64,000 nt of DNA from Patescibacteria group bacterium. GTDB lineage: Bacteria; Patescibacteriota; Minisyncoccia; Phycocordibacterales; UBA9973. This document shows positions 38,035 through 58,952 of this stretch, one piece after another; position 1 is the stretch's first letter, and every line of letters starts with the position of its first letter. The stretch spans positions 35,717 through 99,716 of the forward strand of contig JBBTUY010000004.1 of NCBI GenBank assembly GCA_038063515.1, given 5' to 3'. The translations under genes and the position numbers were made by a program. The notes under the pieces were generated by a model. That model saw only the letters and a program-made list of their open reading frames with translations. It did no database searches and was not told the DNA's origin.

Positions 38035-38035
38035 C

Positions 38036-39928: not shown

Positions 39929-41959
<2,031 letters not shown>

Positions 41960-42466
41960 TTAATATCTTGTTTCTAGCTGACGTTCTATCCTATTTGTAC
42001 TTGTGGAAGTACAGGAAGCATCCCCAATATTATAACCTTTAGAAACTATAGTTGTTACAGTTCTAATTCCTGAAGTAGCATCTTTTTGAACTGTTACTAC
42101 TGCACAATTTGTACTACTTGCAGCACCTAAACCAGTTAAAATAAAAGTATATACTCCGTTATTAGGATTACCAGCAATAGCTGCCCAAGTTGCAGTGATG
42201 TTGGAATTTCCGCCACAGTTTACGGTAGTTGATACACCAGGCAAAACAAAACGACTACTTACACCTTTATCATTCATAAGGGCACATTCTATGCCGGTAT
42301 CAGCGGCAAAGAAAGAATCGTTTGTATCCCGTGCCGAAGTAGTGAATTTAAGTTCTTTGAGAGCTATATTTGCAATGCCCAAAGTTATAGAAAGCAAAAT
42401 ACTTGATACTACTACTGCAAATAGTATAACGAAAGCCTTATTCTTTTGTATATTTTGTAATATCAT
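41960..42466 (-). CDS. PilX-like pilus-associated protein (hydrophobic N-terminal helix without a canonical G/FTLIE prepilin site)
   Basis: N-terminus KAFVILFAVVVSSILLSITLGIANIALKELK resembles PilX_N-type proteins. Ser/Thr-rich with several Cys. 9 nt upstream of ligA. Confidence 0.4.
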   Translation of the reverse strand: MILQNIQKNKAFVILFAVVVSSILLSITLGIANIALKELKFTTSARDTNDSFFAADTGIECALMNDKGVSSRFVLPGVSTTVNCGGNSNITATWAAIAGNPNNGVYTFILTGLGAASSTNCAVVTVQKDATSGIRTVTTIVSKGYNIGDASCTSTSTNRIERQLETRY

Positions 42467-42467
42467 A

Positions 42468-43076
42468 TTATTCTACCCAGTTATATAAACTTTCAGTAAA
42501 TGAAACACTTACATAAGCCCCATTTTGTAACCAATATACTGTTGAAGAAATTTTCATTTCATTAGCACTAGGAAAAGGAAAAGTTACACTTATTTTTCGA
42601 TTAAACCCAGCAGACACCCCAAGAGAAGAATTATTGTATTTACCAGTAGTAGAATTATAGTATATGGGTGCATTGCGACAATCATCAAATGAGCATGCTG
42701 TTATAGTCATAGCAGTTATGGGTTGAGTAGGATTATTATAATCTAAACTATCAGCGTTAAAATAGCATCCATTTGTAGTAGCACATAATGCATTCCATGA
42801 AGCTGTAGTAAGCTTGGTTTTAAATGCATTCCAACCAGCCTGTGAGCCACCAGCATCGTTTAATACATATGCATCACGCAAGTTTCTTATATACTCTACT
42901 CCCTCTTGTGCAAGATATGTTGCGACGACTTTCCTTTGTGCATAGTTACCATTATTAGTATCTTTAGCCGAAATAGATATGAGGCCGAGTATAGATGCAG
43001 TAAGGATGGAAATGGCAATAAGGGTCTCTATTAAAGTAAAGCCAAGATTTTTATTTGTTGTATTTTTAAATTTCAT
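42468..43076 (-). CDS. Type IV pilus minor pilin / pseudopilin
   Basis: Prepilin leader plus GFTLIETLIAISIL class III signal. Confidence 0.75.
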   Translation of the reverse strand: MKFKNTTNKNLGFTLIETLIAISILTASILGLISISAKDTNNGNYAQRKVVATYLAQEGVEYIRNLRDAYVLNDAGGSQAGWNAFKTKLTTASWNALCATTNGCYFNADSLDYNNPTQPITAMTITACSFDDCRNAPIYYNSTTGKYNNSSLGVSAGFNRKISVTFPFPSANEMKISSTVYWLQNGAYVSVSFTESLYNWVE

Positions 43077-43084
43077 ATAAATAT

Positions 43085-43753
43085 CTAGTTTACATCAATT
43101 AATCTCTGAGAAACTGAAGTTTGCAAATTAAAAGGTGTCTCTCCATTCTTTAAAAGAATTTTACCTACTAGTCTTATGGTAACAAAAGGCTGTTGTCTAT
43201 TACCAGAAGAATAAGACTCTGCGCCCAAAACAGCGAAGGATGAAACTGATTGAATCACAACTTCGTCCGGAGTTAATTTAACGAACCCTGCGGCAGCATA
43301 AGGACCAACAGTAGATTTCCATACAGCAAGTGGATTACCTGGAAGATTAGTATCAGGACCTATATAATAAACCCACTGATCGTTATCACTCGCATTATCA
43401 ATACCATCATTACTTGGAACACCTGTCTCAGGCTCAAAAGATATACCCCAACAATTTGAAGCGTTTGTGGAACTTTTTGGCACACTTACAAGATTAGAAG
43501 TAGTAGTAGGCATAGTGTCGCCTGAAAGAAAACAATGATAATTGTACCCTGTTCTCAAATTTCTAGACATATCTTCCATCATAAAGGTCATATTATCCAT
43601 AATAGATCGTACGTCCTGAGACTTCTGATGTAAAACATTCGCATTCAAAAATGCGCCCATAGCGGTAACAGCAATTATCAAAAAAAGTGACACAGCAATC
43701 ATAGTTTCTATGATTGTATATCCAGTATTATTTTGTAAAAAATTATTTTTCAT
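43085..43753 (-). CDS. Type IV pilus minor pilin / pseudopilin
   Basis: GYTIIETMIAVSLFLII prepilin cleavage/methylation motif. Confidence 0.75.
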   Translation of the reverse strand: MKNNFLQNNTGYTIIETMIAVSLFLIIAVTAMGAFLNANVLHQKSQDVRSIMDNMTFMMEDMSRNLRTGYNYHCFLSGDTMPTTTSNLVSVPKSSTNASNCWGISFEPETGVPSNDGIDNASDNDQWVYYIGPDTNLPGNPLAVWKSTVGPYAAAGFVKLTPDEVVIQSVSSFAVLGAESYSSGNRQQPFVTIRLVGKILLKNGETPFNLQTSVSQRLIDVN

Positions 43754-43763
43754 TTTGTCTAAC

Positions 43764-44402
43764 CTAATTCATCTGAACTCTACCCGAAGGGTATATTTTT
43801 ATAAGTGCACTGCCACCTTTTGGTGAAATTACTGTAATCTGTACATATGATACGGCTCCTGCCAATGCGGTACCATTTGAGGTAAAATTCACCCCCGAAT
43901 TAACTCGTGAAAATGTTGCAGTTAAATTACTAGGAGTAGCAGAGACAGTACCAAAAACTTGAATTGCAGATATATAACTTCCTTTAGGAATAGAAACCTT
44001 ACCTAAACATTCTGTGGTTGTACAATGTGGCAAACCATCATAAATACCGTCACTGTCTAAATCGGTAAAATAAATAAACTTTTTATTAAAAAATATGCTG
44101 TCATTTGAGTCATTACTATTAGTTGAATCAAAATAAATACCGTAAGAAGGCTTCCACGTAGAGGGTACAGTAGTCGTAGGTAATTTACCCGACAATGCTG
44201 CTTTCTGAGCCTCCACTATCTTAAGTGCTATTTCATTACCTAAGTTTTTTGTATCAACCTTAGACTGGAAAAATCCGTAATTAAAAGTAATAACAGTGGA
44301 CATAAGAGAAAATATACCGAGAACAACGATAAGCTCCACATACGTCATACCTTTATTGTATTGTTTATGTTTTACTATTTTATTTTTATTTAAATGAAAC
44401 AT
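43764..44402 (-). CDS. Type IV pilus minor pilin / pseudopilin (GspH/FimT-like)
   Basis: GMTYVELIVVLGIF prepilin motif after a long basic leader. Confidence 0.7.
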   Translation of the reverse strand: MFHLNKNKIVKHKQYNKGMTYVELIVVLGIFSLMSTVITFNYGFFQSKVDTKNLGNEIALKIVEAQKAALSGKLPTTTVPSTWKPSYGIYFDSTNSNDSNDSIFFNKKFIYFTDLDSDGIYDGLPHCTTTECLGKVSIPKGSYISAIQVFGTVSATPSNLTATFSRVNSGVNFTSNGTALAGAVSYVQITVISPKGGSALIKIYPSGRVQMN

Positions 44403-44414
44403 TATTTAAAAGTT

Positions 44415-45251
44415 TTAAATTTGAAAAAAGCTGAAAATATATAAGTCTAGTATGAAAACAAGAAATGATCCAAAAACCAAATACGGGGCAAAAGGTATCT
44501 CACTTCTCATTTTATACCTCTTAGATATTATAACAAGCACAATACCTATGATTGCCCCAGACCAAAATGCAATAGCAGTAGCAGAAAGTATCCTTGAGAA
44601 GCCGAGTAGCCACCCGAGCCCTACTGCAAGCTTTGCGTCACCTAGTCCCATCCATGTACCACGTGAGACGAGCCAAAGTAGTGCGAAAGGTAGTGACACA
44701 GCTACGCCAGCCATGAAATCAAAAAGTGTGGGTATGTGAAATACAAAATATCCATGAGCGTTAAAGAAAAACATACCAATAAAGGCAAAGGCTGCCAACA
44801 TTAAAGAAAGCTGGTCGGGAATTATTTTATGCTTTATATCGTAGGTAGAGATTACTAAAAGAATTGAAAACATAAAAGCATAATACGTAAACACAAAAAT
44901 AAAATTAAAAACATCTATAAATAAGATGTCCTGAAATTTAATAAAAAGTGATACGAAAATAAGACCACTGGTGAGCTCTACGAGTGGATACTGTATAGAT
45001 ATCTTTGTCTTACAAATTTTACATCTCCCCATAAGCGCAAAGAAGCTAAATACTGGAATGAGCTCATACCATGAGAGCTTGTTCTGGCAGGTCATGCAGG
45101 CACTCCTGCCTCCAAGGGACTTCTTTGTATTTATCCTATATATGACAACATTTAAAAAACTCCCAATTATAACACCGAGACAGAAAAAGAAAATCATATA
45201 AGGCAAAATCATATATATAATTGTACCATAAATATAAAACTGAATAAACAA
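44415..45251 (-). CDS. pilD: Prepilin peptidase / N-methyltransferase PilD (peptidase A24)
   Basis: GSFLNVVIYR, zinc tetracysteine CMTCQNKLSWYELIPV...CKICKTKI, polytopic C-terminal catalytic domain. Confidence 0.85.
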   Translation of the reverse strand: MFIQFYIYGTIIYMILPYMIFFFCLGVIIGSFLNVVIYRINTKKSLGGRSACMTCQNKLSWYELIPVFSFFALMGRCKICKTKISIQYPLVELTSGLIFVSLFIKFQDILFIDVFNFIFVFTYYAFMFSILLVISTYDIKHKIIPDQLSLMLAAFAFIGMFFFNAHGYFVFHIPTLFDFMAGVAVSLPFALLWLVSRGTWMGLGDAKLAVGLGWLLGFSRILSATAIAFWSGAIIGIVLVIISKRYKMRSEIPFAPYLVFGSFLVFILDLYIFSFFQI

Positions 45252-45284
45252 AAAAAAGCCACCCTTGAGGTGGCTTTTTTTTGT
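45251..45284. terminator. Bidirectional intrinsic terminator A8-gccacc-cttg-aggtggc-T8, downstream of pilin gene 45297..45833
   Basis: Perfect 7-bp GC stem flanked by 8-nt A and T runs. Confidence 0.75.
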
Positions 45285-45296
45285 AAGAATTAAATT

Positions 45297-45833
45297 TTAA
45301 TCGCAACGATAACCACCTACTGCAGTAGCATTAGAAAATGCTGCAGTAAAGTTAACTAAAGTTGTTGGTGATGTACCAGTAAATGTTCTCTTTGTACCTT
45401 TGTTATCATTACAAAATGCCCCAGTAGAAGTTGATGCGGCAAAGAACCAAGTACCTGAAGTATTTGGATCAGCACCATTCCATCCGTAGTAAACATAAGT
45501 AGGTCCTGGTAAAGTAGAGGCTAGTGCGTACAAACTATTTAAAGAACTAGTTGTAGCGTTAAATAATGTTCCACTCGCAGCAGTACCAGCAGGCAATGCA
45601 CCAGTTATACCAGAACTGACCTGATATGCTGTTGGGGTTACATATGCAGTACCAGTCGTACCTGAAAACAAAAATCCTTGAGAAGTCATCTGGCTCAACT
45701 GGGAGACTATTTTTGCATCTCGGCTCTTACCTCTTGCAGAACCAAGGTAAGCAAGAACAACTGTTGCCAAGATAGCGATAATAGCTATGACTATCATAAG
45801 CTCGATCAAAGTGAAACCTTTTTTAGAATTCAT
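45297..45833 (-). CDS. pilA: Type IV major pilin (PilA-like), paralog 2
   Basis: MNSKKGFTLIELMIVIAIIAILA canonical class III signal; Thr/Ser/Gly-rich globular part; C-terminal Cys pair (FCNDN...YRCD). Confidence 0.8.
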   Translation of the reverse strand: MNSKKGFTLIELMIVIAIIAILATVVLAYLGSARGKSRDAKIVSQLSQMTSQGFLFSGTTGTAYVTPTAYQVSSGITGALPAGTAASGTLFNATTSSLNSLYALASTLPGPTYVYYGWNGADPNTSGTWFFAASTSTGAFCNDNKGTKRTFTGTSPTTLVNFTAAFSNATAVGGYRCD

Positions 45834-45878
45834 ATTAAATATAATTTAAATTAATAATACAAGCAGTACAATATATAG

Positions 45879-45908
45879 ATTATAACACATAACACCATAT
45901 AAAAACAA
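45879..45908 (-). promoter_or_regulatory. Promoter candidate for pilin paralog 2: -35 TTGTTT (45908..45903), 18-nt spacer with TG, -10 TATAAT (45884..45879).
   Basis: Read on the minus strand. The -35 overlaps the U-tract of the upstream terminator. Confidence 0.35.
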
Positions 45909-45945
45909 AAATACCCTGTGTTTTCCACAAGGTATTTTTGTAATA
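45901..45945 (-). terminator. Intrinsic terminator for pilin paralog 1 (imperfect 10-bp stem ataccttgtg/cacagggtat plus TTTTTGTTTTT)
   Basis: Stem-loop 45911..45935 followed on the minus strand by a long T-tract. Confidence 0.6.
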
Positions 45946-45976
45946 TTTTTTTAAATATTAATGAATCTAAAATAAT

Positions 45977-46456
45977 CTAGCTTGCAGCAGAGTTGTTGCA
46001 GATAACATTAGTACTAGAAGGACCTGCAGTTATGTCAGTCATACCTAAAGTACTTACACCTGCATACCCCGTACTATCTACACAGAAAAATGTACCGGTA
46101 GGTAGAGTAATCATAGCACCCCAAGCAGAAGGAGCTACACCAACAGCAGTATTTTGTCCACAACCAACTGTGTTTGGAGAAGCTGAAGCATTAGCAGCAT
46201 TCTTAAGAGCAAGTAAACTACCAGTAGTAGTAACAGCAGCGTTACAAAGATCTACGGCATATGTACCAGCAGCACCCACTCCAAGCTCAGCTTGTGCACG
46301 CATTGAAGACATACTTGCTTGAACAGAAGCGTCTTTACCTTTGTTTCTTGCAGTGTTAAGAGAAGCCAAAACAACTGAAGCTAAGATACCTATGATAGCA
46401 ACAACAACCAAGAGCTCGATCAAAGTGAAACCTTTTTTGAAATTCATTTTTTTCAT
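45977..46456 (-). CDS. pilA: Type IV major pilin (PilA-like), paralog 1
   Basis: MKKMNFKKGFTLIELLVVVAIIGILASVVLA class III signal. Start chosen at MKKMNF rather than the longer track ORF. C-terminal Cys pair (FFCVD...VICNN). Confidence 0.8.
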   Translation of the reverse strand: MKKMNFKKGFTLIELLVVVAIIGILASVVLASLNTARNKGKDASVQASMSSMRAQAELGVGAAGTYAVDLCNAAVTTTGSLLALKNAANASASPNTVGCGQNTAVGVAPSAWGAMITLPTGTFFCVDSTGYAGVSTLGMTDITAGPSSTNVICNNSAAS

Positions 46457-46505
46457 AATATTTTTAAAACTAATAATAATTGATAATTCGACTCCCACCC
46501 AAACG

Positions 46506-46572
46506 ATTATAGCCAGGCAGGTATATTTTTATATAAAGTAATTATATCATATGTAAAAACAAAAATACGCAA
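46506..46572 (-). promoter_or_regulatory. Promoter region for pilin paralog 1: -35 TTGCGT (46572..46567), 17-nt spacer, extended -10 TGATATAAT (46549..46541). A second TGGCTATAAT lies at 46515..46506.
   Basis: Read on the minus strand; an extended -10 compensates for a weaker -35. Confidence 0.35.
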
Positions 46573-46613
46573 ACAAGTTATCCACAGCAATACTGTCTAA
46601 TCAGTATATAATC

Positions 46614-47822
46614 TTAACTGATACCTCCAGCTAGGTTATATATAGGTATAAGTATAGAAGTAAGTAATATACCGACACCGAGACCAAGTACCACTATCAT
46701 CACAGGCTCTATGAGCCCGACGAGAGTGTCTACTGCGTCGTCCACCTCACGTGCATAAAAAGTAGCCAGTGTCTTTAAGATAGACCCGAGTGAGCCTGTC
46801 TCCTCTCCCACCTTTATCATTTGGACCATGATTCCTGGTATTTCTACTTTATATTTTTCAAATGCAGCAGATAATGAAGAGCCGGATTTAACCTTTTCCA
46901 TAATTTCTTCTAATATCTTTTTATACACACGACTTCCCACAACACTCGAAGTAACGTCAATAGACCTCAGTATTGGCACACCTGAGGAAAGAGTTGTGTT
47001 TAAATTGTCTGCGATTCTAGAAAGGTAGAGTGTTCGGTATAAGTTACCTACAACTGGCAGAGATAGTCGTGTATGGTCGAGATATGTCTTACCTGTCTCA
47101 GTAGAAGCAAGTCTCCAAACCCAAATACCTAAAAATACTAAGAAAATAATACCGAGGAAGCCATAATTAACAAATAAATCAGAAATTCCTATGATCACCT
47201 TTGTATATATTGGTACTTCCTGACCTGAATCTAGAATAATCTCTGAAAGTCTTGGGATAACAATAACGAACATAAGGATCATGACAACAAAGAAAGTAAT
47301 GATGACGAATACAGGGTAAATAAGAGCATTTCTGGTTTTAGAAGACAGAGAGTACTGACGATCTAAGTATTCAGACAAATGTAAAAATACTTCAGTTAGC
47401 TTTCCTGTCTCTTCCCCCACCTTTACCATGTTTACATAAAAGTCTGAAAAAACTTCCGGATGACGTGCAAGCGCACCTGATATAGACACACCAGCCTGAA
47501 GATCGTCGCTGATTTGAGTAAGCTTAACTCCTAAAAGCTTATTTTCAGTATTTACTGCGAGCATGTTAAAACATTTAAGAGCGGAGACTTGGGCATCAAA
47601 CAAAGTAGAGATTTGTCTAGACAATATGACCACATCTTTGTTTGAAACTTTGTTGAAAATAGAAAGATTGAGGAATTTCCTTGGTTCATCTGTATTTTTT
47701 ATAGAAATAATTACAAGACCACGCTTTTGTAGTCCGCTTATCGCCATGTCTCTACTCGGAGCGTCTATGTCTCCTTCTTTGCTTACACCCTTGTCATCTA
47801 TTGCTTTATATTTGAATAGCAT
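46614..47822 (-). CDS. pilC: Type IV pilus platform protein PilC (GspF family)
   Basis: Two T2SS-F repeats, 3 TM segments, 402 aa. Confidence 0.85.
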   Translation of the reverse strand: MLFKYKAIDDKGVSKEGDIDAPSRDMAISGLQKRGLVIISIKNTDEPRKFLNLSIFNKVSNKDVVILSRQISTLFDAQVSALKCFNMLAVNTENKLLGVKLTQISDDLQAGVSISGALARHPEVFSDFYVNMVKVGEETGKLTEVFLHLSEYLDRQYSLSSKTRNALIYPVFVIITFFVVMILMFVIVIPRLSEIILDSGQEVPIYTKVIIGISDLFVNYGFLGIIFLVFLGIWVWRLASTETGKTYLDHTRLSLPVVGNLYRTLYLSRIADNLNTTLSSGVPILRSIDVTSSVVGSRVYKKILEEIMEKVKSGSSLSAAFEKYKVEIPGIMVQMIKVGEETGSLGSILKTLATFYAREVDDAVDTLVGLIEPVMIVVLGLGVGILLTSILIPIYNLAGGIS

Positions 47823-47829
47823 ATATGTA

Positions 47830-48888
47830 TTAAATCATACGATCTAGGCCTTTTGGATTTAGAGAATACTGTCTCGCATTCTCTATAGAAATCTCCCCTG
47901 CACGAACAAGCTCTACTAGTGAGTGGTTTAAGTCCACCATCCCAGATTCAGAACCTGTTTCTATTACTACGTCTATCTCATGTGTTCTTTTTTCACGAAT
48001 AAGGTTTGACACAGCATTGTTATTTAAAAGAAGTTCGTATGCAGGTATGAGTCCCCCGTTAATGCGAGGTACAAGTCTCTGAGAAAATATCCCGAGTAAT
48101 CCAGAAGCAAGCTGAGAACGAATCTGGTCTTGCTGGTTGCCTGGGAATGAATCTATGATTCTGTCTATTGTCTGTGAAGCATTGTTTGTGTGTAAAGTAG
48201 AAAGTACGAGGTGGCCTGTCTCAGCGGCCGTTACAGCTGTAGCTATGGTCTCTGGCGTACGCATCTCACCTATCAAGATGACATTTACATCTTCACGAAA
48301 GACGGACTTCAGTGCAACATGGAAATCTTTGGTATCTATACCTACTTCGCGTTGATTAATTATTGATTTATTTGGAACATATACATGCTCAATAGGGTCC
48401 TCAATGGTGATGATATTGCGTGCTTGTTCGTTGTTTATTAGGTCTACCATTGCGGAAAGCGTAGTAGACTTACCTTGACCTACAGGTCCAACCACTAAGA
48501 AAAATCCCTGCTTTTTCCTTGCAATATCCGCCAAACTGTCAGGCAAATGTAAATCAGAAAATGTTTTAACCTTTGGCACTAAACGCAAGACAATATTTAT
48601 CAAACCTTTTTGAAAAAAAGCGTTACCACGAAGTCGCGCTTCTCCACGGAAATCATAAGAGAAATCCATTTCTTGATTTTCAAGAAAAAGATCGACCTTA
48701 CCAGGGGGTAATATTGCTTTTAATATTCCCATTATATCTTCTTCGGTGAGAGGTGCGTGTTTAACAAGAAATATTAACTCTCCGGAAACACGAATAGCCG
48801 GCACACGAGTCGTACCTATGTGCAAGTCAGATCCATCTTCACGGATGACATTTAAAACGAGATCTTCAAATAATTTTTTATAGTCCAT
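47830..48888 (-). CDS. pilT: Twitching-motility / pilus retraction ATPase PilT
   Basis: 352 aa; Walker A GPVGQGKSTTL, Asp box, His box AAETGHLVLSTLHTNNA; no GspE N-domain. Confidence 0.85.
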   Translation of the reverse strand: MDYKKLFEDLVLNVIREDGSDLHIGTTRVPAIRVSGELIFLVKHAPLTEEDIMGILKAILPPGKVDLFLENQEMDFSYDFRGEARLRGNAFFQKGLINIVLRLVPKVKTFSDLHLPDSLADIARKKQGFFLVVGPVGQGKSTTLSAMVDLINNEQARNIITIEDPIEHVYVPNKSIINQREVGIDTKDFHVALKSVFREDVNVILIGEMRTPETIATAVTAAETGHLVLSTLHTNNASQTIDRIIDSFPGNQQDQIRSQLASGLLGIFSQRLVPRINGGLIPAYELLLNNNAVSNLIREKRTHEIDVVIETGSESGMVDLNHSLVELVRAGEISIENARQYSLNPKGLDRMI

Positions 48889-48963
48889 TCGTTACTAAAA
48901 TTTATATTTATAATATATATTATTGTACCATGTAATAAAAGTTAGGAGAATAGCTCTATATTT

Positions 48964-49368
48964 TTATGTATTTGAAATAGCTATTTTCTTTGAAGTTATC
49001 TCCCCAACTTGTTCTAAAACTTCTTTTGGAGTACAGTTTGCTTTTATTATATATCCAGCGACGCCGAGAGCATTGCCTTGGTCGATGTCTGCCTGCTCGC
49101 TCTTGTTAGATAAAACTATTTTTATAGAATTTGGTGATAAGTTTTCAGCATTTATGCGTCCGAGCATTTCGAAACCATCAACTTCTGGCATAATAATATC
49201 CGTTAACAAAACATCTGGCTGTAAGCCACCCTTTATCTTACTCAAGGCATCTTCGGCTCCTGAAGACGTATGCACTTCATAATTGCTCTGACTAAACTTT
49301 AAAGCATACATATCTAAAAGAAAATTATCATCATCAACTATTAAAATTTTCTTCTTTTCTCCTTCCAT
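48964..49368 (-). CDS. Stand-alone response-regulator receiver domain (CheY/PilH-like)
   Basis: KILIVDDD, phospho-acceptor region VLLTDIIMPEVDGFEM, conserved Lys in GYIIK. 134 aa, no output domain. Confidence 0.75.
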   Translation of the reverse strand: MEGEKKKILIVDDDNFLLDMYALKFSQSNYEVHTSSGAEDALSKIKGGLQPDVLLTDIIMPEVDGFEMLGRINAENLSPNSIKIVLSNKSEQADIDQGNALGVAGYIIKANCTPKEVLEQVGEITSKKIAISNT

Positions 49369-49532
49369 AATATTTAAATTAAAATAATAATCTCAAAAAA
49401 AATACTTTTTATGGGAAACCTAGGGTTTATGATCTTTGTACACCTAGATTTTATTATAACACACAATGTTTTTTACTTAGACATGCTGTGTATAACTACA
49501 TAAAACTAGAGTAAATCGACAATTTAGACAAA

Positions 49533-51278
49533 TTACTCAGTAGCATCACTGAAATTATACACTTCCTTAAATGGAATGATACCGTTTACTGCTTTCAGCA
49601 TGGCATCTTCCCTCATCATAAGCATGCCCTTCTGGCGGACAGCTTTGTAAATTTCAGCCTCTATTGGATTTTTCAAAATTATACTTTGAACTTCTTTGTC
49701 TACTTTAAACATTTCAAATACCGCAACACGACCCCTCGTACCTGAAGGACATTCCGAAGACGGCACAGTGTCGTACATTTTACCATCCTCCCCTATTACT
49801 TTTTTGAACTGATCGGGTAAGTCTTTTAATTCTTCGTCTATTTGATTCTTAATCACAGGATCTATGGGTACTAATTTTCTTGATGATTCACATGTCATGA
49901 GAGCTAAACGCTGAGCCATAGATAAAATGAGGGTAGGAGCAATGAGGTAAGGGTCGACACCCATGTCTATAAGACGAGGAATGGCACCTATGGCATTGTT
50001 GGTATGCAAAGTAGAAAGAACTAAGTGCCCTGTAAGGGCCGCTTGAATGGCAAGCTGAGCTGTCTCCTTGTCACGTATTTCTCCTACCATTATTATATCT
50101 GGGTCCTGACGCATAATAGAGCGAAGACCATTTGCAAAAGTATACCCAATCTCAGGCATGACCTGTGACTGGCTTACATTTGGCATGTGGTACTCCACAG
50201 GGTCTTCGAGTGAAATAATATTATTTTTTTCTTTGTCTAATTCGTTCATCATAGAGTACAAAGTCGTAGACTTTCCAGAGCCAGTAGGTCCAGTGATGAG
50301 AATGATGCCGTAGGGTCGTGTTAATGCTTCTTTAACCATTTTCAAATTTTCAGGAGAGAGGTGTAGCTGATCGAGAGGCTTTACCCCCTTTTCAGAGTCA
50401 AGTATACGAATAACAACTTTTTCACCATAATACGCAGGCATAGTGGAGACACGAAAATCTATCTTGTGACCATCAATATTTGCACTAAAAGATCCGTCTT
50501 GAGGTTTTCTTTTTTCATCGAGTCTTAATTTTGCTAAAATTTTAATACGAGCTACGACTCCACTGTATACATTGAGTGGAAGGACTATGGAAGTATACAA
50601 AGCTCCGTCTACACGAAAACGAACTTTCACTTTTTCTCCAGTATGCTCTATGTGTATGTCAGAGGCATTACCTTCTATGGCGTTACGAAGCACAACTGCT
50701 ACTATTTTTATCACGGGAGCATCCTCCACTATCTTTGCCTCTTCATTTGGTTTAGTATTTTTTAATGTATCACTCAAATTTTCGTCTACTAAAGATTGCT
50801 CTTTAGCTTCGTCTTTGTTTAATATATCTAGGGCTTCTTCTACTTGAGTCGTTAAGCCTCTGTATATACCCATAGTGCGTTCATAGTCTCCTTTAGATAT
50901 GAGAAAAACCTTAAAAGGTACTCCTGCCTTGTTGGAAATAAACTGGAGTGCATCCATTGCTTGTATGTTTTCTGGATCAGTGACACCTACGTGAAGAACT
51001 CCATCTTTGAGGTCTATCGGGACAAAATTATAATGTGTAGCTGAATCCTCAGAAATATATTTAAGTGGATCAAATGTCAGCTCTTTTTCAGTAACTTTTA
51101 CAGCTGGTATACCTAAATACTCCCCCCTTAGTGAGAGAAGTTCTTGTTCTCCTATACCAGACTCTAGTAAAGCTTCATTAATATCTCCACTGTATTTCTC
51201 AACAGCACGAGCTTTGATCTCGCTTATCTGGTCTTCTTTTATTAGATTTTTTTCAACTAATGATTGTAGAAAACTCAT
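49533..51278 (-). CDS. pilB: Type IV pilus assembly (extension) ATPase PilB (GspE family)
   Basis: 581 aa; N-terminal GSPII_E_N domain; Walker A GPTGSGKSTTLYSM; tetracysteine-region equivalent; His box. Confidence 0.9.
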   Translation of the reverse strand: MSFLQSLVEKNLIKEDQISEIKARAVEKYSGDINEALLESGIGEQELLSLRGEYLGIPAVKVTEKELTFDPLKYISEDSATHYNFVPIDLKDGVLHVGVTDPENIQAMDALQFISNKAGVPFKVFLISKGDYERTMGIYRGLTTQVEEALDILNKDEAKEQSLVDENLSDTLKNTKPNEEAKIVEDAPVIKIVAVVLRNAIEGNASDIHIEHTGEKVKVRFRVDGALYTSIVLPLNVYSGVVARIKILAKLRLDEKRKPQDGSFSANIDGHKIDFRVSTMPAYYGEKVVIRILDSEKGVKPLDQLHLSPENLKMVKEALTRPYGIILITGPTGSGKSTTLYSMMNELDKEKNNIISLEDPVEYHMPNVSQSQVMPEIGYTFANGLRSIMRQDPDIIMVGEIRDKETAQLAIQAALTGHLVLSTLHTNNAIGAIPRLIDMGVDPYLIAPTLILSMAQRLALMTCESSRKLVPIDPVIKNQIDEELKDLPDQFKKVIGEDGKMYDTVPSSECPSGTRGRVAVFEMFKVDKEVQSIILKNPIEAEIYKAVRQKGMLMMREDAMLKAVNGIIPFKEVYNFSDATE

Positions 51279-51373
51279 CCCGTTAGAAATTTATATTTTA
51301 ATTATTAATACATAATATATTATACCTCATTTTAATCTTTTCGTTATTTCTAACGGAATTCATACAGAGGTAA

Positions 51374-51787
51374 TTAGTTTGTGGGATTGGTATTGTTTTT
51401 AGGGAGAGACGAGTTTGGTTGTGTGTTTGTAGAAATATTTACAGATGTTGAAACTTTATCAGACCCAATAGGAGCAAAAGGGTTAGGTCTACCTTCTGTG
51501 CCGTCAGGATTAAGTATTATAGTAGAGTCACGTAGTGATGTGAAAGCTGGATTAGAAAATATAGTTGCATCTAATTTTATCCCTTCCACAGACAAGAGGA
51601 GCGTGAGGAATTCTTGAGTGATAGTAGAGTCAGCAACATTAGTATCCGTAGGAACAACGCTACCAGACGGAGACGTGGTTACAAGATTACCTGATTCCTC
51701 CGGACTTTTCTTAACAAAGAAAATAAATATGAGGAGAAAAATTCCTGCAATTGCTGTAAATATTAAAATGTTTTTTAATTTCTTCAT
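51374..51787 (-). CDS. Hypothetical membrane-anchored Ser/Thr/Pro-rich protein in the PilP-like position of the pilMNO cluster
   Basis: N-terminal TM; low-complexity TNTQPNSSLPKNNTNPTN tail. Confidence 0.35.
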   Translation of the reverse strand: MKKLKNILIFTAIAGIFLLIFIFFVKKSPEESGNLVTTSPSGSVVPTDTNVADSTITQEFLTLLLSVEGIKLDATIFSNPAFTSLRDSTIILNPDGTEGRPNPFAPIGSDKVSTSVNISTNTQPNSSLPKNNTNPTN

Positions 51788-51790
51788 ATT

Positions 51791-52387
51791 TTAATTCTTT
51801 AACCAATAAGTCTTGATTTTAAAATCATGTTTGTATGTTGGAGTACCGGACTTTAAATCTATCTCCGAAGAAAAAGTTATTGATGATACATCTACTATGC
51901 GTAGATTGCTTTCAAGGTCTCGTGTAAAGTTTAGGAAATTTTCATATGTGCCAACAATAGAAAAGCTCAAATCCCACACACCGTATTCAGTAGAAACACC
52001 TGGTCCTGTAGCTCCTCCTGGGACCACTGATCCAGATCCTGGGGCTGTTGTTGTAGGGGCTGTTTTGATAGCATCATATTTCACATCTCTAAGAACCATG
52101 CCGTATGGTGCTGCAATCTTTTCTATTTCAAGAATGAGTCTGATGTTGTCGATACTGTCTGGAAGAAGCTTTTGTAGTTTTGCGAGGTCTTCAGTATTTA
52201 AGGCATTGTACTCAGCGGTTAATTTATCTCTTTGGTTTTCGAGTGCTTTAGAATTCTTTAAGGCCTCGTCATAAGACGCGACCTGACCACGAAGTTCTAC
52301 TACGTTAGTATAGAGAGGATTAGTAAATGCAAAAAATCCTGCAACTGCTATTCCTAATAAAATGATTGGTAAGATAAATCTAAGCAT
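51791..52387 (-). CDS. pilO: Type IV pilus inner-membrane alignment protein PilO
   Basis: N-terminal TM plus coiled coil and LLPDSIDNIRLILEIEKIA block. 198 aa. Confidence 0.65.
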   Translation of the reverse strand: MLRFILPIILLGIAVAGFFAFTNPLYTNVVELRGQVASYDEALKNSKALENQRDKLTAEYNALNTEDLAKLQKLLPDSIDNIRLILEIEKIAAPYGMVLRDVKYDAIKTAPTTTAPGSGSVVPGGATGPGVSTEYGVWDLSFSIVGTYENFLNFTRDLESNLRIVDVSSITFSSEIDLKSGTPTYKHDFKIKTYWLKN

Positions 52388-52389
52388 AA

Positions 52390-53031
52390 TTATGGATTTA
52401 ATTGAGGTGGCAAAATCCCTTCTACTGCTTGCTCCCTCTTTAGGAGATTAAGCTTATAATCTACAAATGATGGATCAACTGAGAAATCTAAATCGAAAAT
52501 AATGTTACCAGTCTCACTGAGTGTAAGGTTTGAAAAAACAGGTTCAATAAAATTCTTGTTCTTGCCGAAAAGATCTGACTGAAGTGCAAGATGGCTATAT
52601 CCCAAAGAAACACCAGACATCTTAACATTTACTCTGTCACCCAGATTGCCTCCGTAGGTATAGCTAAATTTAGTAAAACGAACACTCTTCATTGTGATAA
52701 GCTGAAGCTCTTCAAATATAGGACTAATGGCTATATGCTTGGTGAGGACTTGGTTTGCTGCGTGGAGCCTTCTGTCTAAAAGCCTGAGGCCTTCTATCTT
52801 TGTAGGCTCGAAACGATTCTTTGCTAGAGATAGGTCAGATTCCATTTTTGCAATACTTTTCAATTGGACTCCTTTATAAAAATAAAATGCTCCTGTGGTG
52901 ATGGCGACAGTGAGAACTATGAGAATACAAATCACGGTCAAAAAACCGATCGGCTTCGTGTATGTAGCAGAAGTATTTTCTCTAACCAAAGGTTTTTTAG
53001 GTATGAAAGATGTTTGAAAATTTTGTTCCAT
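52390..53031 (-). CDS. pilN: Type IV pilus inner-membrane alignment protein PilN
   Basis: Short cytoplasmic N-terminus, single TM, periplasmic domain. Adjacent to pilO with a 2-nt gap. Confidence 0.6.
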   Translation of the reverse strand: MEQNFQTSFIPKKPLVRENTSATYTKPIGFLTVICILIVLTVAITTGAFYFYKGVQLKSIAKMESDLSLAKNRFEPTKIEGLRLLDRRLHAANQVLTKHIAISPIFEELQLITMKSVRFTKFSYTYGGNLGDRVNVKMSGVSLGYSHLALQSDLFGKNKNFIEPVFSNLTLSETGNIIFDLDFSVDPSFVDYKLNLLKREQAVEGILPPQLNP

Positions 53032-53356
53032 TACTTTATATTGTATCTTTTATATTATATTACAAAAATATCTTTTAATGAAGCAAAGTGTGTATAACTT
53101 TATGCAAAGACAGAAAATAAATACAAGCTGGGAGTTTGGTAGATGAGAAAATAAAAAAGGCAGATAAGGGTATACACGTGTAACACCCTCATCTGCCCGA
53201 GCATTCAAATACAAGTATGCGGAATATTTTACTTATATTTGATATTTTTTTGCCAACAGGAAACTTAAAGCACTTTTGTCTAAAAAGTTGTAGTGTGAGA
53301 TTGAATAGTTGTGGAACATTTAGCGGACTTTTAGTGGTCCATAGAAAGGGGATAAA

Positions 53357-53513
53357 TATGAGAGAAAAAGGTTTGGCACAAGCGTGCACCCTGACGTTAG
53401 GGCTTGGGTTTGTTTTGCTGTTTCTTTCCTGGGTGGCGGCTGGAGCAGGAAACGAGATAGGTGGTTACGTCGCCATCATCTTCTTCGCATTAAGGGTGGC
53501 CGGATTTTGGTAG
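53357..53513 (+). CDS. Small (51 aa) two-TM hydrophobic protein in a locally GC-rich patch
   Basis: AAAGGGG SD 6 nt before the ATG. MREKGLAQACTLTLGLGFVLLFLSWVAAGAGNEIGGYVAIIFFALRVAGFW. The surrounding 140 nt are far more GC-rich than the flanks. Confidence 0.3.
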
Positions 53514-53543
53514 GTCATCAAAGCCACAAAAGTAAACTACCCC

Positions 53544-53570
53544 CACTAGCAAGAACGGTTCTTACTAGTG
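53544..53570. repeat. REP-like imperfect palindrome cactagcaagaacggttcttactagtg at the 3' end of the RAYT gene
   Basis: Same core (ctagcaagaacggttcttgctag) recurs at 54284..54312. Confidence 0.75.
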
Positions 53571-54257
53571 TTTGCTTTGATCTTCATCATTTTCAAAAGA
53601 AAGATAACTATCTATAAAATCTTCAAAATCATTGTCGTAAGAAAAATATTCCGGAAAAGCTTCTTTATTTAAAATATTACTTTCACATCTATCTATCCCT
53701 GTATAGTCAATGTAACTAGAATACTTATACTTTTTTAAAAAATCTTGCCAAGTATTTGGATTTTGTTTATCGATCAGTTCTTGCCATCCAGAAAATTGTA
53801 AATCCAATGGATTCAAAGCTATATATCCAAAGAGGTGTTTTAAATATATATCTTCAGGGATATGTTTTGATTTAAATAATCCTCCAAATAAAGATCCTGT
53901 TCTTTGATATTTTATATTAAAATACATTGAATAACCGACACCTAGTTTTCTCATAAATTTAGTAATTCCACCTTCAACCTCTTCTTTAAGAAGAATATGA
54001 AAATGATTCGGCATGAGACACCATGCACCAATAGACACAAGTGCATTACTCCTTTTGTAAGAAAATATTTCTTCATAACTTTTATGTAAAATATTTATAA
54101 GATTATCGAGCCTTATAGATTCATCGGAATTAGCCACATAAAGTAACATGATGAAACGATTGTAATCGTGAGTGGATTTAAAAATAACCCTCTTGTCTAT
54201 CCCCCTATTATAAATATGATAAAATTCTCCTGGAACAAAAATATCTTTTCTTAACAT
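53565..54257 (-). CDS. REP-associated tyrosine transposase (RAYT) / IS200-IS605-family Y1 HuH transposase
   Basis: HuH motif MPNHFHILL, catalytic Tyr in YIALNP, EFYHIYNRG N-terminal block. Start chosen at ATG 54257 (MLRKDIF...); the track ORF uses an upstream TTG. Confidence 0.75.
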   Translation of the reverse strand: MLRKDIFVPGEFYHIYNRGIDKRVIFKSTHDYNRFIMLLYVANSDESIRLDNLINILHKSYEEIFSYKRSNALVSIGAWCLMPNHFHILLKEEVEGGITKFMRKLGVGYSMYFNIKYQRTGSLFGGLFKSKHIPEDIYLKHLFGYIALNPLDLQFSGWQELIDKQNPNTWQDFLKKYKYSSYIDYTGIDRCESNILNKEAFPEYFSYDNDFEDFIDSYLSFENDEDQSKH

Positions 54258-54283
54258 AAGAAAGAGTTTACCAAATTCGGGCT

Positions 54284-54323
54284 CCTCTAGCAAGAACGGT
54301 TCTTGCTAGAGGATTGCTAGAGG
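54284..54323. repeat. REP-like palindrome cctctagcaagaacggttcttgctagagg plus a partial tandem copy (attgctagagg)
   Basis: 14-bp arms. Lies between the pilM stop and the RAYT start. Confidence 0.75.
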
Positions 54324-54330
54324 AAATATT

Positions 54331-55458
54331 TTATTGAAGTTTGCGCAGTGCTAGACCCATAGCGACAGCAAACTCGGGACCCATGGTATCAAGAACTTTC
54401 TGCAAGAATTCTGGAGTCTTAACTTTAGAAAATGGATGACCTATCTCTATTTCAGCTTGGAAATTATTTGCAGAAACTTCTTTGAGACCCTTCATAAGCG
54501 CCCCACCACCAGAAAATATAACCTTGCTTATTGTTCTGTTGTATTTTTTCTCATAACTTAGTAATACGTTGTTTGTTTCAGACATTATGTAGTCTATGTG
54601 AATCTTGATAACGTCAGCTAAGCTTTTTTCTGTAGGGCTACCGTATAGTCCAAACTCTTTCTTGATCTTCTCAGCTTCGGCAAATGACATGCTTAGAGAC
54701 TTGGATATTGATTCTGTTATATACGCTCCCCCTCTCTCTATAGAGTGAAAACTTTTCACCATGCCAAACTCCACAATAGAGAGCTTGGTGCGGGACGCAC
54801 CAAAATCAATAAGGAGAACTGGAGAAAGTTCATGCTCAAAGTTTGATCTGATAGAAGAGAAAATTTCAATTTCAAAAAAAGGAGACTCGATCTTGCACTC
54901 TGCTAAAATAGAACGGAACTTAGCCACTGCGTCATTTTGAGTAGCTACCACGAGCACATTCATCTTGTCTATTTTTACTTCCTCTACATGCTCTCTGTTT
55001 AATTCTTCGAAAGAAGCCTCTTTGTTTGGTAAAACGAAATAATCAAGGGAAACTTCTGCAATGGGCACAGGAATGTATTTCCTAGCTTCAATAGAAACTA
55101 TCGAAAGCATTTCGTCTGCTTTTACCTGAGATGGTAGCTGTATTGTAAATATTAAACTTGATTGTACGGGTATAGACAAAACGCCTGAATTAGAAGAGAC
55201 ACTAGACTGCTTTAATACTTCCTTTAATGCGTCGGCTATTTTCTCTACGGAAAGATTTGTAGTGGCACCTATATCAAGGTCAGCATACGGACCAAGCTCT
55301 ATGATACCGTAAGTTTCGAGTATAACTCTACCCCCCTTCTTCTTTATCTCAACGACTTTGATGGCTGAAGTTCCAATATCAATACCCACAGCACCATCTT
55401 CTGTGCCTTTTATCATTTTCTCTATATTCCCAAAGATTGTTTTCAGCGGATTATCCAT
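54331..55458 (-). CDS. pilM: Type IV pilus assembly ATPase-fold protein PilM (actin-like)
   Basis: GAVGIDIGTSAIKVVEI... actin/HSP70-fold N-terminus; 375 aa. Confidence 0.8.
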   Translation of the reverse strand: MDNPLKTIFGNIEKMIKGTEDGAVGIDIGTSAIKVVEIKKKGGRVILETYGIIELGPYADLDIGATTNLSVEKIADALKEVLKQSSVSSNSGVLSIPVQSSLIFTIQLPSQVKADEMLSIVSIEARKYIPVPIAEVSLDYFVLPNKEASFEELNREHVEEVKIDKMNVLVVATQNDAVAKFRSILAECKIESPFFEIEIFSSIRSNFEHELSPVLLIDFGASRTKLSIVEFGMVKSFHSIERGGAYITESISKSLSMSFAEAEKIKKEFGLYGSPTEKSLADVIKIHIDYIMSETNNVLLSYEKKYNRTISKVIFSGGGALMKGLKEVSANNFQAEIEIGHPFSKVKTPEFLQKVLDTMGPEFAVAMGLALRKLQ

Positions 55459-55495
55459 TTATACTAAAAATACTAATATAATAATTATACCACAT

Positions 55496-56170
55496 ATGGC
55501 CTTTTTGAACACTATATTAAATGGAGTCTTAAATTTAATCTTTCCCATGAAATGCATAGACTGTGGAATTTCAGGATCAAATTTTTGCAATACATGCATA
55601 GGTCAGGCTCCGATCTCAGACAGAGAAGTGTCAAGTTGGATATACCCGACATTCGACTATAGACACCCACCGGTCAAGAAAGCCTTGTGGCTAATAAAAT
55701 ACAAAAGCAAGAAGAGCTTAGTGAAAATATTTGCCGAAATAATGTATGACAGGATGATAGCAGAGCTTGCAGACTTGTCTCAATTAGAAAATTTTAATAA
55801 TTCCATCTTGATACCCATTCCCCTTTCAAAAAAAGGACACAGAGAGAGAGGATACAATCAAGCAGAATTACTTTGCGAAGAATTAATAGAGATAGATAAA
55901 AATACAAATTTTAAACTAGGAAAAAATATTCTAGTAAAGACAAAAGACACAGGGCACCAAGCTCACATTAAAAACAAAGGCGAAAGAATGAAGAATATCA
56001 TTGGTGCTTTTAGTATTAAAGATTTAGATAAAAATATAAATTTGATAAAAAATAAAAATATAATCCTAATAGATGACATAACCACTACAGGAGCTACGCT
56101 CGGTGAAGCAAAGAAAGTGCTAAAAAACGCTGGTGCAAGAAAAATAATAGCTTTTACTATAGCACATTGA
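55496..56170 (+). CDS. comF: ComF-family competence protein (ComFC-like phosphoribosyltransferase with an N-terminal zinc finger)
   Basis: CIDCGISGSNFCNTC zinc finger; PRTase motif IILIDDITTTGATLGEAKKVL. Start set at MAFLNTIL; divergent from pilM. Confidence 0.75.
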   Translation: MAFLNTILNGVLNLIFPMKCIDCGISGSNFCNTCIGQAPISDREVSSWIYPTFDYRHPPVKKALWLIKYKSKKSLVKIFAEIMYDRMIAELADLSQLENFNNSILIPIPLSKKGHRERGYNQAELLCEELIEIDKNTNFKLGKNILVKTKDTGHQAHIKNKGERMKNIIGAFSIKDLDKNINLIKNKNIILIDDITTTGATLGEAKKVLKNAGARKIIAFTIAH

Positions 56171-56183: not shown

Positions 56184-57395
56184 ATGTCACATTGTAAAGA
56201 TTGCGAACCAGCACAAGAAAGTCATTTTGTAGCATATACCTCAGTCGTACTAGGATGGATAGATGAGCCATTTTTTGGACTCATGGAAAAAATGTTTAAA
56301 AATACAGCAGAAGTAATGGCGGACAAGCTGTCTATTCCATTTTTTGAAACCATGGTCTTCCTCGGACTCGGTAGATACTCATACAGGCCAGAGAAAAAGG
56401 ATACATACAGAACTAAATGTTTCTGGGATGAAGCAAGAAGACGAAACATTCAAATGCGTGAATTTCATCTCGGACCCATAGGTGACGCATTCGTGGCGAC
56501 CTTCACATACAAAGACGGTGACAAAGAAAAAAAGAAGACGCTGCTTTTTGATGGCTTACCTCGCCCTGGACTCAAAGACTCACCTTCTCTTAAATGGATG
56601 GACAACAAAGGCATAATGAAAACAAAATTCAAAGAAGCAGGTTTGCCTATAGCAGATGGGGGTGTGACATGGACGAAAAGTCAGGCAATAAAAATTTTTA
56701 ATCGCATCCAAAAGCCCATCATCACCAAGCCGAATTTAGGATCTAGAAGTAGACATACGATGATCCACATAAACACCCTCGAGGATTTGATGGTGGGATT
56801 TAAAAAAGCCAAGAAACTCTCTCCTCTAGTCATAGTCGAGGAAGAACTTCGCGGATACTTGTTTAGAGGAACACTAGTAAATCAAAAAATTGTAGCAGTC
56901 ATAAAACGTGACCAACCAGAAGTCACCGGTGACGGTATTCATACTCTTCAACACTTGCTCGATGAAGAAAACAAAAGACCAGAAAGACAAGGCCCGATAT
57001 ACCACATCATACCCATAGACAAAGAAGCAGAAATAGAGCTAAAAAGACAAAATGTAAAGTTAGACGACGTAATAGAAAAAGGTAAAGTAATAACTTTCTC
57101 CCAAAAGACAAGTAGGAGTTGTGGAGGTACTACTACAGATGTCACAGATATAATTCATCCTGATAACAAAGAAATGCTCGAAAACGTAGGCAAACTTTTA
57201 AATGACCCACTTGTGGGCGTAGATTTTATAATAGAAGATATAACCAAATCATGGAAAGAAGAACAACATTCGGGCATCATAGAGTGCAACAGTCTGCCGT
57301 TTATAGACCTGCACCACTACCCTCTCTTTGGTAAGCCAGTCAACGTAGCAGGAAAACTCTGGGATCTCGTACTACCCGAGTCGCATATAGACTAA
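56184..57395 (+). CDS. ATP-grasp enzyme resembling the N-terminal (aspartate-adding) half of cyanophycin synthetase CphA. No Mur-ligase half.
   Basis: Blocks NQKIVAVIKRDQPEVTGDGIHTLQHLL, TDIIHPDNKEMLENVGKLL and VGVDFIIEDITKSWKEEQHSGIIECNSLPF parallel the CphA ATP-grasp core. Confidence 0.55.
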   Translation: MSHCKDCEPAQESHFVAYTSVVLGWIDEPFFGLMEKMFKNTAEVMADKLSIPFFETMVFLGLGRYSYRPEKKDTYRTKCFWDEARRRNIQMREFHLGPIGDAFVATFTYKDGDKEKKKTLLFDGLPRPGLKDSPSLKWMDNKGIMKTKFKEAGLPIADGGVTWTKSQAIKIFNRIQKPIITKPNLGSRSRHTMIHINTLEDLMVGFKKAKKLSPLVIVEEELRGYLFRGTLVNQKIVAVIKRDQPEVTGDGIHTLQHLLDEENKRPERQGPIYHIIPIDKEAEIELKRQNVKLDDVIEKGKVITFSQKTSRSCGGTTTDVTDIIHPDNKEMLENVGKLLNDPLVGVDFIIEDITKSWKEEQHSGIIECNSLPFIDLHHYPLFGKPVNVAGKLWDLVLPESHID

Positions 57396-58862: not shown

Positions 58863-58952
58863 GGACAGATGGGTGAGTGGCTTAAACCAGCGGTTTACTA
58901 AACCGCCGTCCCCTTAAAAGGACCGTGAGTTCGAATCTCACTCTGTCCGCCA
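58863..58952 (+). tRNA. Type II Ser-like tRNA gene with an atypical anticodon loop (UUACUAA, apparent anticodon ACU); CCA encoded
   Basis: Manual fold: acceptor GGACAGA/TCTGTCC, D-stem GGT/ACC, anticodon stem GCGGT/ACCGC, long variable arm, T-arm GTGAG-TTCGAAT-CTCAC, G73, CCA. A34 is not expected in a bacterial tRNA-Ser. Confidence 0.55.

Follow-up and report, generated by a model that had tools for sequence, protein, structure and literature searches.

The DNA ligase gene ligA and its place in a type IV pilus gene cluster of Paceibacteria

Components of type IV pili (pilins, PilB, PilT, PilC, PilN and PilO) are enriched and co-localised in genomes of the Candidate Phyla Radiation (CPR), where they occur without PilQ and together with ComFC, ComEC and DprA (Meheust et al. 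2019, PMC6744442). Here we examine such a pilus gene cluster, and above all the junction between its last pilin gene and ligA, the gene of NAD-dependent DNA ligase, in 64,000 nucleotides of a Patescibacteria group bacterium (contig JBBTUY010000004.1, positions 35,717 to 99,716; this whole stretch is called the window, and positions are counted from its first letter). The source organism, known from a metagenome-assembled genome, is a Candidatus Nomurabacteria-type member of Paceibacteria, that is, a CPR bacterium with an ultra-small genome. PilD and PilM also belong to the parts list of CPR pili, and these pili have been studied experimentally in Saccharibacteria.

The list of parts given in the CPR survey (PMC6744442) is the same as that of the window cluster, with a PilN-like protein standing for PilN; a ligase is not mentioned there. 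Pili of monoderm bacteria such as Clostridium and Streptococcus sanguinis (reviewed by Melville and Craig 2013, cited in PMC6744442) are also built without a secretin and with PilM/N/O, PilB, PilT, PilC, PilD and several pilins. Compared with these, the window cluster has another gene order, a core of four minor pilins arranged like GspH-I-J-K of diderm type IVa systems, and comFC and ligA at its ends. The Com pilus of Gram-positive bacteria, encoded by the ComG operon, is also pilin-based and is a DNA-uptake device that works with ComFC, but ComG systems have neither PilT nor PilM/N/O, whereas the window cluster has PilT, PilM and PilO. A ComG-type competence pilus was rejected on these grounds; moreover, the ComGC and ComGD models gave E-values of 0.003-0.004 and 17-18 bits against cut-offs of 70-75.

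The pilus machine itself is ordinary for CPR bacteria, since secretin-less type IV pilus clusters of such make-up have already been described for them. New are the fixed 14-gene array in at least two large Paceibacteria lineages, its ligA end, a conserved small protein (p137) and a cluster-specific promoter module. Neither PMC6744442 nor the other literature searched describes the fixed order, p137, the receiver gene that separates pilB from pilT, the promoter module or the end at ligA, and in that literature we found no description of a link between ligA and pilin genes.

Conservation of the ligA junction

On the minus strand, from position 55458 down to 39929, the window carries pilM, a pilN-like gene, pilO, p137, pilB, a response regulator gene, pilT, pilC, two pilin genes, pilD, four minor pilin genes and ligA (Table 1). 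The start of ligA lies exactly 9 nt past the stop codon of the last minor pilin gene, which is PilX-like; an earlier note on this DNA had given the same spacing. The gap holds no hairpin. LigA has the domains of a full-length enzyme in their usual succession, with a strong adenylation domain (E 1.3e-88), a weak Zn finger (E 0.0099) and KFDG in the translation, and its sequence contains no extra domain and no signal peptide.

For the main comparison, 80 loci, each from another species, were fetched via LigA (61-77% identical to window LigA). In the species-representative genome collection, every LigA relative comes from a metagenome-assembled genome labelled Candidatus Nomurabacteria, Paceibacterota or Patescibacteria; the lineages sampled are those of Paceibacteria. 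At least 600 nt of DNA upstream of ligA were available in 74 loci, and in each of these the PilX-like gene directly precedes ligA on the same strand. The two genes are separated by a median of 8 nt, and by no more than 60 nt in 70 of the 74. Even behind the most distant detectable PilX-like homologues (36-38% identity) ligA follows at 1-3 nt. Further upstream, gene order is identical in every LigA-anchored locus as far as the upstream DNA reaches, and it is colinear in 88/88 related loci holding at least four of the 14 cluster genes. The other side of ligA is variable: among 65 loci, the first gene downstream sorts into more than 40 different clusters.

Homologues listed for PilD were close relatives only (60-68% identity), and the taxonomic range was widened by a distant-PilC search instead. 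One locus (L095), of a Kaiserbacteria-type lineage, was reached through PilM, and a search from its PilC led to the four contigs inspected as the Kaiserbacteria-type sample. All four show the PilX-like-ligA junction and the same gene order. LigA of two Kaiserbacteria-type loci (L099, L100), and of one further locus (L081), is 42-44% identical to the window enzyme. Because the junction is present in Kaiserbacteria-type loci whose LigA is so distant, it is, judging from these gene orders, ancient within Paceibacteria and older than the split between Nomurabacteria and Kaiserbacteria.

In the Kaiserbacteria-type loci, gatC overlaps the ligA stop codon and gatA is next. In the window, gatA (62496-63920, minus strand) lies on the strand of the cluster about 7 kb beyond pilM, i.e. 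on its other side. The ancestral order was probably pilus cluster, ligA, gatCA; the ligA-gatC link appears to have been broken in the window lineage and the pilin-ligA link kept, while the ends of the ancestral block appear rearranged. About 6 kb downstream of ligA, the window carries truB, terC and a gene for a UvrD-type helicase fused to a PD-(D/E)XK nuclease (29128-33797, minus strand), and in many relatives these families are again met 0-3 kb downstream of ligA, separated by insertions that vary.

Predicted transcription of ligA and reasons for its position

As a promoter mark we used the extended -10 motif, TGnTAnAAT. On the gene strand of the window, six of the larger gaps contain it, those before pilM, the regulator, pilT, pilA1, pilA2 and pilD. 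The pilN gap has TGTAATATAAT, part of the promoter module described below, in its place. No extended -10 was found in the 95-nt gap between p137 and pilB, nor, on the gene strand, within the last two minor pilin genes. From pilD to ligA the genes are separated by 12, 10, 8, 1 and 9 nt. This distribution suggests the following units: pilM; pilN-pilO-p137-pilB; the regulator; pilT-pilC; pilA1; pilA2; and pilD with the four minor pilin genes and ligA.

Relatives show a similar picture. Counted in its strict form and within 150 nt upstream of a gene, the extended -10 precedes pilD in 45% of 76 loci, ligA in 2% of 82 loci and the minor pilin genes in 0-4%. Generic -35/-10 pairs have a frequency of 0.21 before ligA, against 0.21-0.25 before internal operon genes. 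Since the junction is conserved, the downstream neighbour is variable and promoter-like elements stand before pilD and not before ligA, ligA is most likely the last cistron of a six-gene operon of pilD, minor pilin genes and ligA. Read-through from the minor pilin genes into ligA, as the earlier note had proposed, is supported at the level of sequence: a 9-nt gap, no hairpin, no promoter enrichment, and a junction present in 74/74 species and in distant lineages. A dedicated ligA promoter is unsupported by the frequencies of generic pairs and of the extended -10; the window holds one candidate, at 42058-42029.

Why, then, has ligA stayed behind the minor pilin genes? We favour the explanation, with a probability of roughly 0.6, that the pilD operon ends with ligA and that the junction survives mainly because a promoterless essential gene cannot be moved. 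The gene would be transcribed from the pilD promoter as the final cistron of the last unit; as it is essential and would have no promoter of its own, separation from the genes ahead of it would leave it silent. The junction would not be kept on account of a part played by the ligase in the pilus machine. That tight adjacency in compact genomes is not by itself shared function follows from the Kaiserbacteria-type run, which continues into the translation genes gatC and gatA; this continuation favours housekeeping hitch-hiking of ligA. Several observations weigh against our explanation. The candidate promoter just mentioned is a sigma-70-like pair (GTAACA-18-TATAAT) that lies within the PilX-like gene, some 80 nt ahead of ligA, and possibly acts as an internal promoter. 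At least four relatives (L008, L035, L044 and L071) have a longer gap before ligA that holds terminator-like or -10-like sequence. In these ligA may be separately read, yet it is adjacent, and promoter dependence alone does not explain this. The operon boundaries are predicted from spacing and consensus motifs, in a group of bacteria whose promoter rules are not established. Finally, comFC and ligA are both genes of DNA handling and are both conserved at the cluster ends; a functional link would account for this no less well than chance.

Such a link is in line with the earlier note, for which a ligase coupled to a DNA-uptake pilus would suit natural transformation. In this reading the pilus would capture DNA, and pilus, ComFC and ligase would have stayed together for that reason; LigA, produced along with the minor pilins of the tip and a working part of uptake, would seal the DNA into the chromosome or carry out repair after recombination. 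In its favour, lineages that have diverged very deeply still share the junction and differ in what follows ligA; the junction has also outlasted the ligA-gatC link. The transformation gene comFC is fixed at the opposite cluster end in both lineages. Competence regulons of Haemophilus, Neisseria and Vibrio include a ligase that is induced together with the DNA-uptake genes, but these ligases are small, ATP-dependent, periplasmic and non-essential, whereas the window enzyme is a full-length, NAD-dependent, cytoplasmic LigA. ComEC, DprA and ComFC are widespread in CPR bacteria alongside type IV pili, and DNA scavenging has been proposed for the group (PMC6744442). Among the large open reading frames of the window no ComEC, ComEA or DprA was found. 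LigA looks like an ordinary replicative enzyme, needed for replication regardless of uptake; the Kaiserbacteria-type run goes straight into gatC-gatA, which are unrelated to uptake; and a large lectin-like extension of the PilX-like protein in some relatives (L062) points to adhesion as a function of the pilus. We consider a working role of LigA in uptake rather unlikely. Somewhat more doubtful still is its strongest form, in which the essential replicative ligase of Paceibacteria would be wired into a pilus and competence regulon, LigA being made only with PilD and the minor pilins of the tip, and capture, handling of single-stranded DNA and sealing forming one module with ComFC, inherited and expressed as a unit and central to the way these bacteria gain or recycle DNA. 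The weakest reading, given the motif statistics, is that the position of ligA is frozen history only, the gene being expressed from its own promoter in the 3' end of the PilX-like gene and the order persisting through little rearrangement. The sigma-70-like pair with its perfect TATAAT, the promoter- or terminator-like sequences in at least four relatives and the colinearity of 88/88 loci, which indicates a stable region, would agree with it. However, promoter-like pairs are no commoner before ligA than before internal operon genes, and the extended -10 is nearly absent there. Nor is the region generally frozen: the neighbours downstream of ligA vary, pilin number ranges from 1 to 4, cassettes come and go, and gatA has moved.

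If ligA depends on the pilD promoter, as we favour, these organisms, which cannot be cultured by themselves, couple the expression of an enzyme essential for replication to the making of pili. A functional link would bear on the question whether CPR pili serve DNA uptake. If neither holds, the locus is a well-documented case in which streamlined genomes preserve a gene order although the genes share no function. The evidence is comparative genomics throughout, and no new mechanism is claimed.

The pilus machine and its parts

Genes were called from the listing of open reading frames and from Pfam and NCBIfam profile scans of the window proteins. The cluster encodes a complete machine for a type IV pilus that can be retracted and that, as in monoderms, has no secretin. 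This bears out the earlier note, which had read a full machine here: PilT, PilB, PilC, PilD, PilM, PilO and the two major pilins are all recognised by Pfam. Among the large open reading frames scanned in the window there is no secretin, ComEC, ComEA or DprA. We group the cluster with monoderm-type systems because the PilQ secretin is absent, which is the known state in CPR; its absence is expected, since CPR bacteria are a group without outer membrane.

Table 1. Features of the pilus cluster and of the insertion within it, in order of position (slashes mark the leader boundary noted in the translation)
Feature	Position	Strand	Basis and remarks
ligA, NAD-dependent DNA ligase, full length	39929..41950	-	Ia, adenylation, OB, Zn finger, HhH, BRCT in order
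Minor pilin 4, PilX/GspK-like	41960..42466	-	A/FVILF, without Glu5
Minor pilin 3	42468..43076	-	G/FTLIE; N_methyl E 1.8e-5
Minor pilin 2	43085..43753	-	G/YTIIE; N_methyl E 6.4e-4
Minor pilin 1 (GspH/FimU position)	43764..44402	-	G/MTYVE in translation; weak NCBIfam ComGD and GspH matches, E 0.003-0.03
pilD (prepilin peptidase / N-methyltransferase)	44415..45212	-	A24_N_bact PF06750 E 8.6e-30; Peptidase_A24 PF01478 E 1.2e-12; extended -10 TGGTACAAT at 45228
Intrinsic terminator 3' of pilA2	45248..45284	-	Hairpin and T-run; -17.6 kcal/mol, z -7.5
pilA2	45297..45833	-	N_methyl (PF07963) E 3.7e-10; leader MNSKKG/FTLIE; extended -10 TGTTATAAT at 45887
Intrinsic terminator 3' of pilA1	45905..45941	-	16-bp stem and T-run; z -5.4
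pilA1	45977..46456	-	N_methyl (PF07963) E 2.9e-9; leader MKKMNFKKG/FTLIE; extended -10 TGATATAAT at 46549
pilC (platform protein)	46614..47822	-	T2SSF, two stretches, E 8.1e-58
pilT (retraction ATPase, 352 aa)	47830..48888	-	T2SSE E 5.7e-40; extended -10 TGGTACAAT at 48930
Receiver-only response regulator (CheY/PilH-like)	48964..49368	-	PF00072 E 6.3e-17
Second copy of putative promoter module	49447..49499	-	With TGTTATAAT, upstream of response regulator
pilB (extension ATPase)	49533..51278	-	T2SSE E 1.5e-118; MshEN
p137	51374..51787	-	Membrane-anchored, family unassigned; invariant GRxNPFA
pilO	51791..52387	-	PF04350 E 4.1e-7, 30.7 bits, cut-off 22
pilN-like	52390..53031	-	Position; conserved N-terminal MEQNFQTSFIPKKP, one transmembrane helix, coiled coil, alpha/beta domain
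Putative promoter module, conserved	53048..53101	-	GTTATACACA ... TTCATTAAAAG ... TGTAATATAAT, upstream of pilN; same place in 12 relatives
Terminator-like hairpin and T-run	53148..53197	-	-11.6 kcal/mol, z -5.1; inside insertion
Small open reading frame, 51 hydrophobic residues	53358..53513	+	50% G+C, surroundings 24-35%; convergent with transposase; status uncertain
Second palindrome copy	53544..53570		Downstream transposase flank; 2 matches in window, 0 expected
Y1 (HUH) tyrosine-transposase gene, RAYT-like	53565..54255	-	PF01797 Y1_Tnp 29.6 bits, cut-off 23
REP-like palindrome CCTCTAGCAAGAACCGTTCTTGCTAGAGG	54283..54313		31 nt, perfect; upstream flank of transposase gene; DNA fold -14.5 kcal/mol, z -7.65
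pilM	54331..55458	-	PF11104 PilM_2 E 3.7e-42; actin-like ATPase of alignment complex; extended -10 TGGTATAAT at 55492
comFC-like	55496..56170	+	Pribosyltran PF00156 E 3.2e-8; DZR_2 zinc ribbon; divergent from pilM

In the assembled machine, PilM, the PilN-like protein, PilO and the small p137 would form the scaffold in the membrane. PilB would extend the pilus on the platform PilC and PilT would retract it, and PilD would process two alternative major pilins and four minor pilins, the latter presumably priming assembly and being located at the pilus tip. The translation of PilT contains the Walker A sequence GPVGQGKST and AVSNLIRE, which we take to be a PilT signature; that of PilD contains GLGDAK and CxxC pairs. 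The receiver-only regulator gene, placed between the genes of both ATPases, is found between pilB and pilT in 64 of 70 loci and also in the Kaiserbacteria-type loci.

Assignment of the PilN-like protein is less direct. Profile searches, set beforehand as the check on the pilMNO reading of the earlier note, gave a divided outcome, PilM and PilO passing Pfam and the PilN window protein having no match. In sequence and profile searches this protein matched nothing in Pfam, NCBIfam or PDB; among 13 members of its family one matched PF05137 PilN, weakly, at 7.8e-4. An hhalign comparison of the PilN-like family with the PilO family was not significant (probability 3.6%), and a single-sequence AlphaFold model, with a predicted local distance difference test (pLDDT) score of 51, was too poor for a fold search. 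The family alignment shows an invariant cytoplasmic N-terminus (SFIP within MEQNFQTSFIPKKP), followed by a predicted coiled coil and then an alpha/beta domain, and the gene sits between pilM and pilO in every relative. Position, topology and the one weak family match favour its assignment as PilN.

The second protein of this kind, p137, is a fixed member of the cluster in Nomurabacteria and Kaiserbacteria. An alignment of 22 homologues, Kaiserbacteria included, contains the GRxNPFA motif (consensus EGRPNPFAP). None of the 22 members matches Pfam, and no match was found in NCBIfam or PDB. PilP proteins have an R-D/N-P-F motif; we do not on that account call p137 a PilP.

The core minor pilins are four in number, the first being kept in all relatives and the last being devoid of Glu5, an absence typical of GspK and PilX. 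The PilX-like window protein is identical to a hypothetical protein of a Patescibacteria metagenome-assembled genome at NCBI. It has no Pfam match of its own; three of its homologues carry PilX_N. An AlphaFold model from a 70-sequence alignment (pLDDT 92) consists of a 57-residue helix followed by a six-stranded sheet. In a Foldseek search of this model against PDB no match was meaningful; the S. sanguinis minor pilin PilA is the best structural match of the protein. We regard the protein as a minor pilin of the tip type. Its counterpart in one relative (L062, 7396-9963) reaches 855 aa and is modular, with a lectin-like C-terminal end (...DDVKIYNYALTQAEI), and ligA is still directly next; extended versions occur in several other relatives too. 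Such a lectin-like extension fits a tip adhesin, as far as its sequence can tell.

The two major pilins, pilA1 and pilA2, are 36% identical. The number of pilin genes at this site differs between loci: one in 25 loci, two in 33, three in 11 and four in 1. Among relatives, a hairpin with a T-run follows 45% of 128 pilin genes versus 1% of 343 internal operon genes. That the window pilins are separately expressed alternatives with terminators of their own, as had been suggested for them, is supported at the level of predicted signals, each gene having an extended -10 and a strong terminator. Cysteine pairs are present in both window pilins. At 37456-39799 on the plus strand, convergent with ligA, there are a thioredoxin gene and a gene for a fusion of DsbD-membrane, redoxin and thioredoxin domains. 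Thiol-disulfide oxidoreductases are enriched in CPR and possibly tied to pilin folding (PMC6744442).

At the other end of the cluster, the comFC-like product matches the ComF model TIGR00201 with an E-value of 1.1e-24 and yet with 87 bits, below the curated cut-off of 234. Its start was placed at ATG 55496, leaving a gap of 37 bp to pilM; TTG 55358 was rejected as it would overlap pilM. The tie between the cluster and ComF that the earlier note had drawn holds beyond the window. In 10/10 relatives with upstream DNA comFC is divergent from pilM, and in the Kaiserbacteria-type loci a comFC-homologous phosphoribosyltransferase gene stands on the opposite strand, followed by a pterin dehydratase gene and then by the run from pilM to ligA. 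Beside comFC, at 56184-57886, there are two genes. One encodes an ATP-grasp protein that resembles cyanophycin synthetase in its ATP-grasp part (NCBIfam E 5e-58, with a score far short of the cut-off), the other a 164-aa protein without family. This pair adjoins comFC in L084, whereas in L096 about 3.5 kb separate the two.

Putative promoter module, transposase insertion and surroundings

A conserved module, GTTATRCACA-N6-TTCATTAAAAG-N9-TGTAATATAAT, occurs twice in the window. Across 1.58 Mb of related loci GTTATRCACA was found 17 times on the gene strand, always in intergenic DNA, and twice on the other strand. The 17 sites lie upstream of pilN (12), the regulator (4) and a pilin gene (1). 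The module may be where a regulator of the cluster binds.

An insertion of about 1.3 kb, not mentioned in the earlier note, splits pilM from pilN. It contains a transposase cassette (53543-54313) and leaves intact the 54-nt promoter module upstream of pilN. In 15 relatives with a pilM-pilN junction the two genes are 25-100 nt apart in 14 and 540 nt apart in L083. No transposase gene stands between them in any of the 15; the insertion is private to the window genome. The small open reading frame inside it has a good ribosome-binding site; none of the fetched loci contains a homologue.

The cassette recalls the repetitive extragenic palindromic (REP) sequences and their associated tyrosine transposases (RAYTs): as in RAYT systems, a Y1/HUH gene with HFH and Y-x3-NP motifs (YIALNP in the translation) is flanked on both sides by one palindrome of 27-31 nt. 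It differs in that the transposase is far below the cut-off of the NCBIfam RAYT model (REP_Tyr_transpos, E 5.8e-7, 29.5 bits, cut-off 80), that only two palindrome copies are present in the 64-kb window, and that the host is a CPR bacterium; the one paper found to name both RAYTs and Patescibacteria deals, by its title and abstract, with other subjects. The core of the palindrome GCAAGAACNGTTCTTGC also occurs in relatives. It flanks a transposase homologue in L060 and forms a six-copy array beside one in L026; it is found in L001, L038 and L058 too, and L020 is likewise listed among the single occurrences of palindrome or transposase homologue. Cassettes in relatives are mostly situated between the pilin genes and pilD. 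Judged by these sequence features, the insertion looks like a REP/RAYT-type element visiting intergenic gaps of the pilus cluster.

The remaining window is densely filled with housekeeping genes: dnaG, rpoB, rpoC, trmD, a gene for an RNase II/R-type exoribonuclease (RNB domain), smc, rnc and nusB, further gyrB, pheS, pheT, the gene of the UvrD/PD-(D/E)XK helicase-nuclease, truB and gatA. At 58863-58952 (plus strand) ARAGORN reports a tRNA-Ser with anticodon ACT, unusual in bacteria, which adjoins a tRNA-Ser(GCT) on the opposite strand; the anticodon is maybe misplaced. At 61451-61755 (plus strand), with introns allowed, it reports a tRNA-Met(CAT) with a group I intron of 233 nt in its anticodon loop (Rfam RF00028, 63.9 bits).

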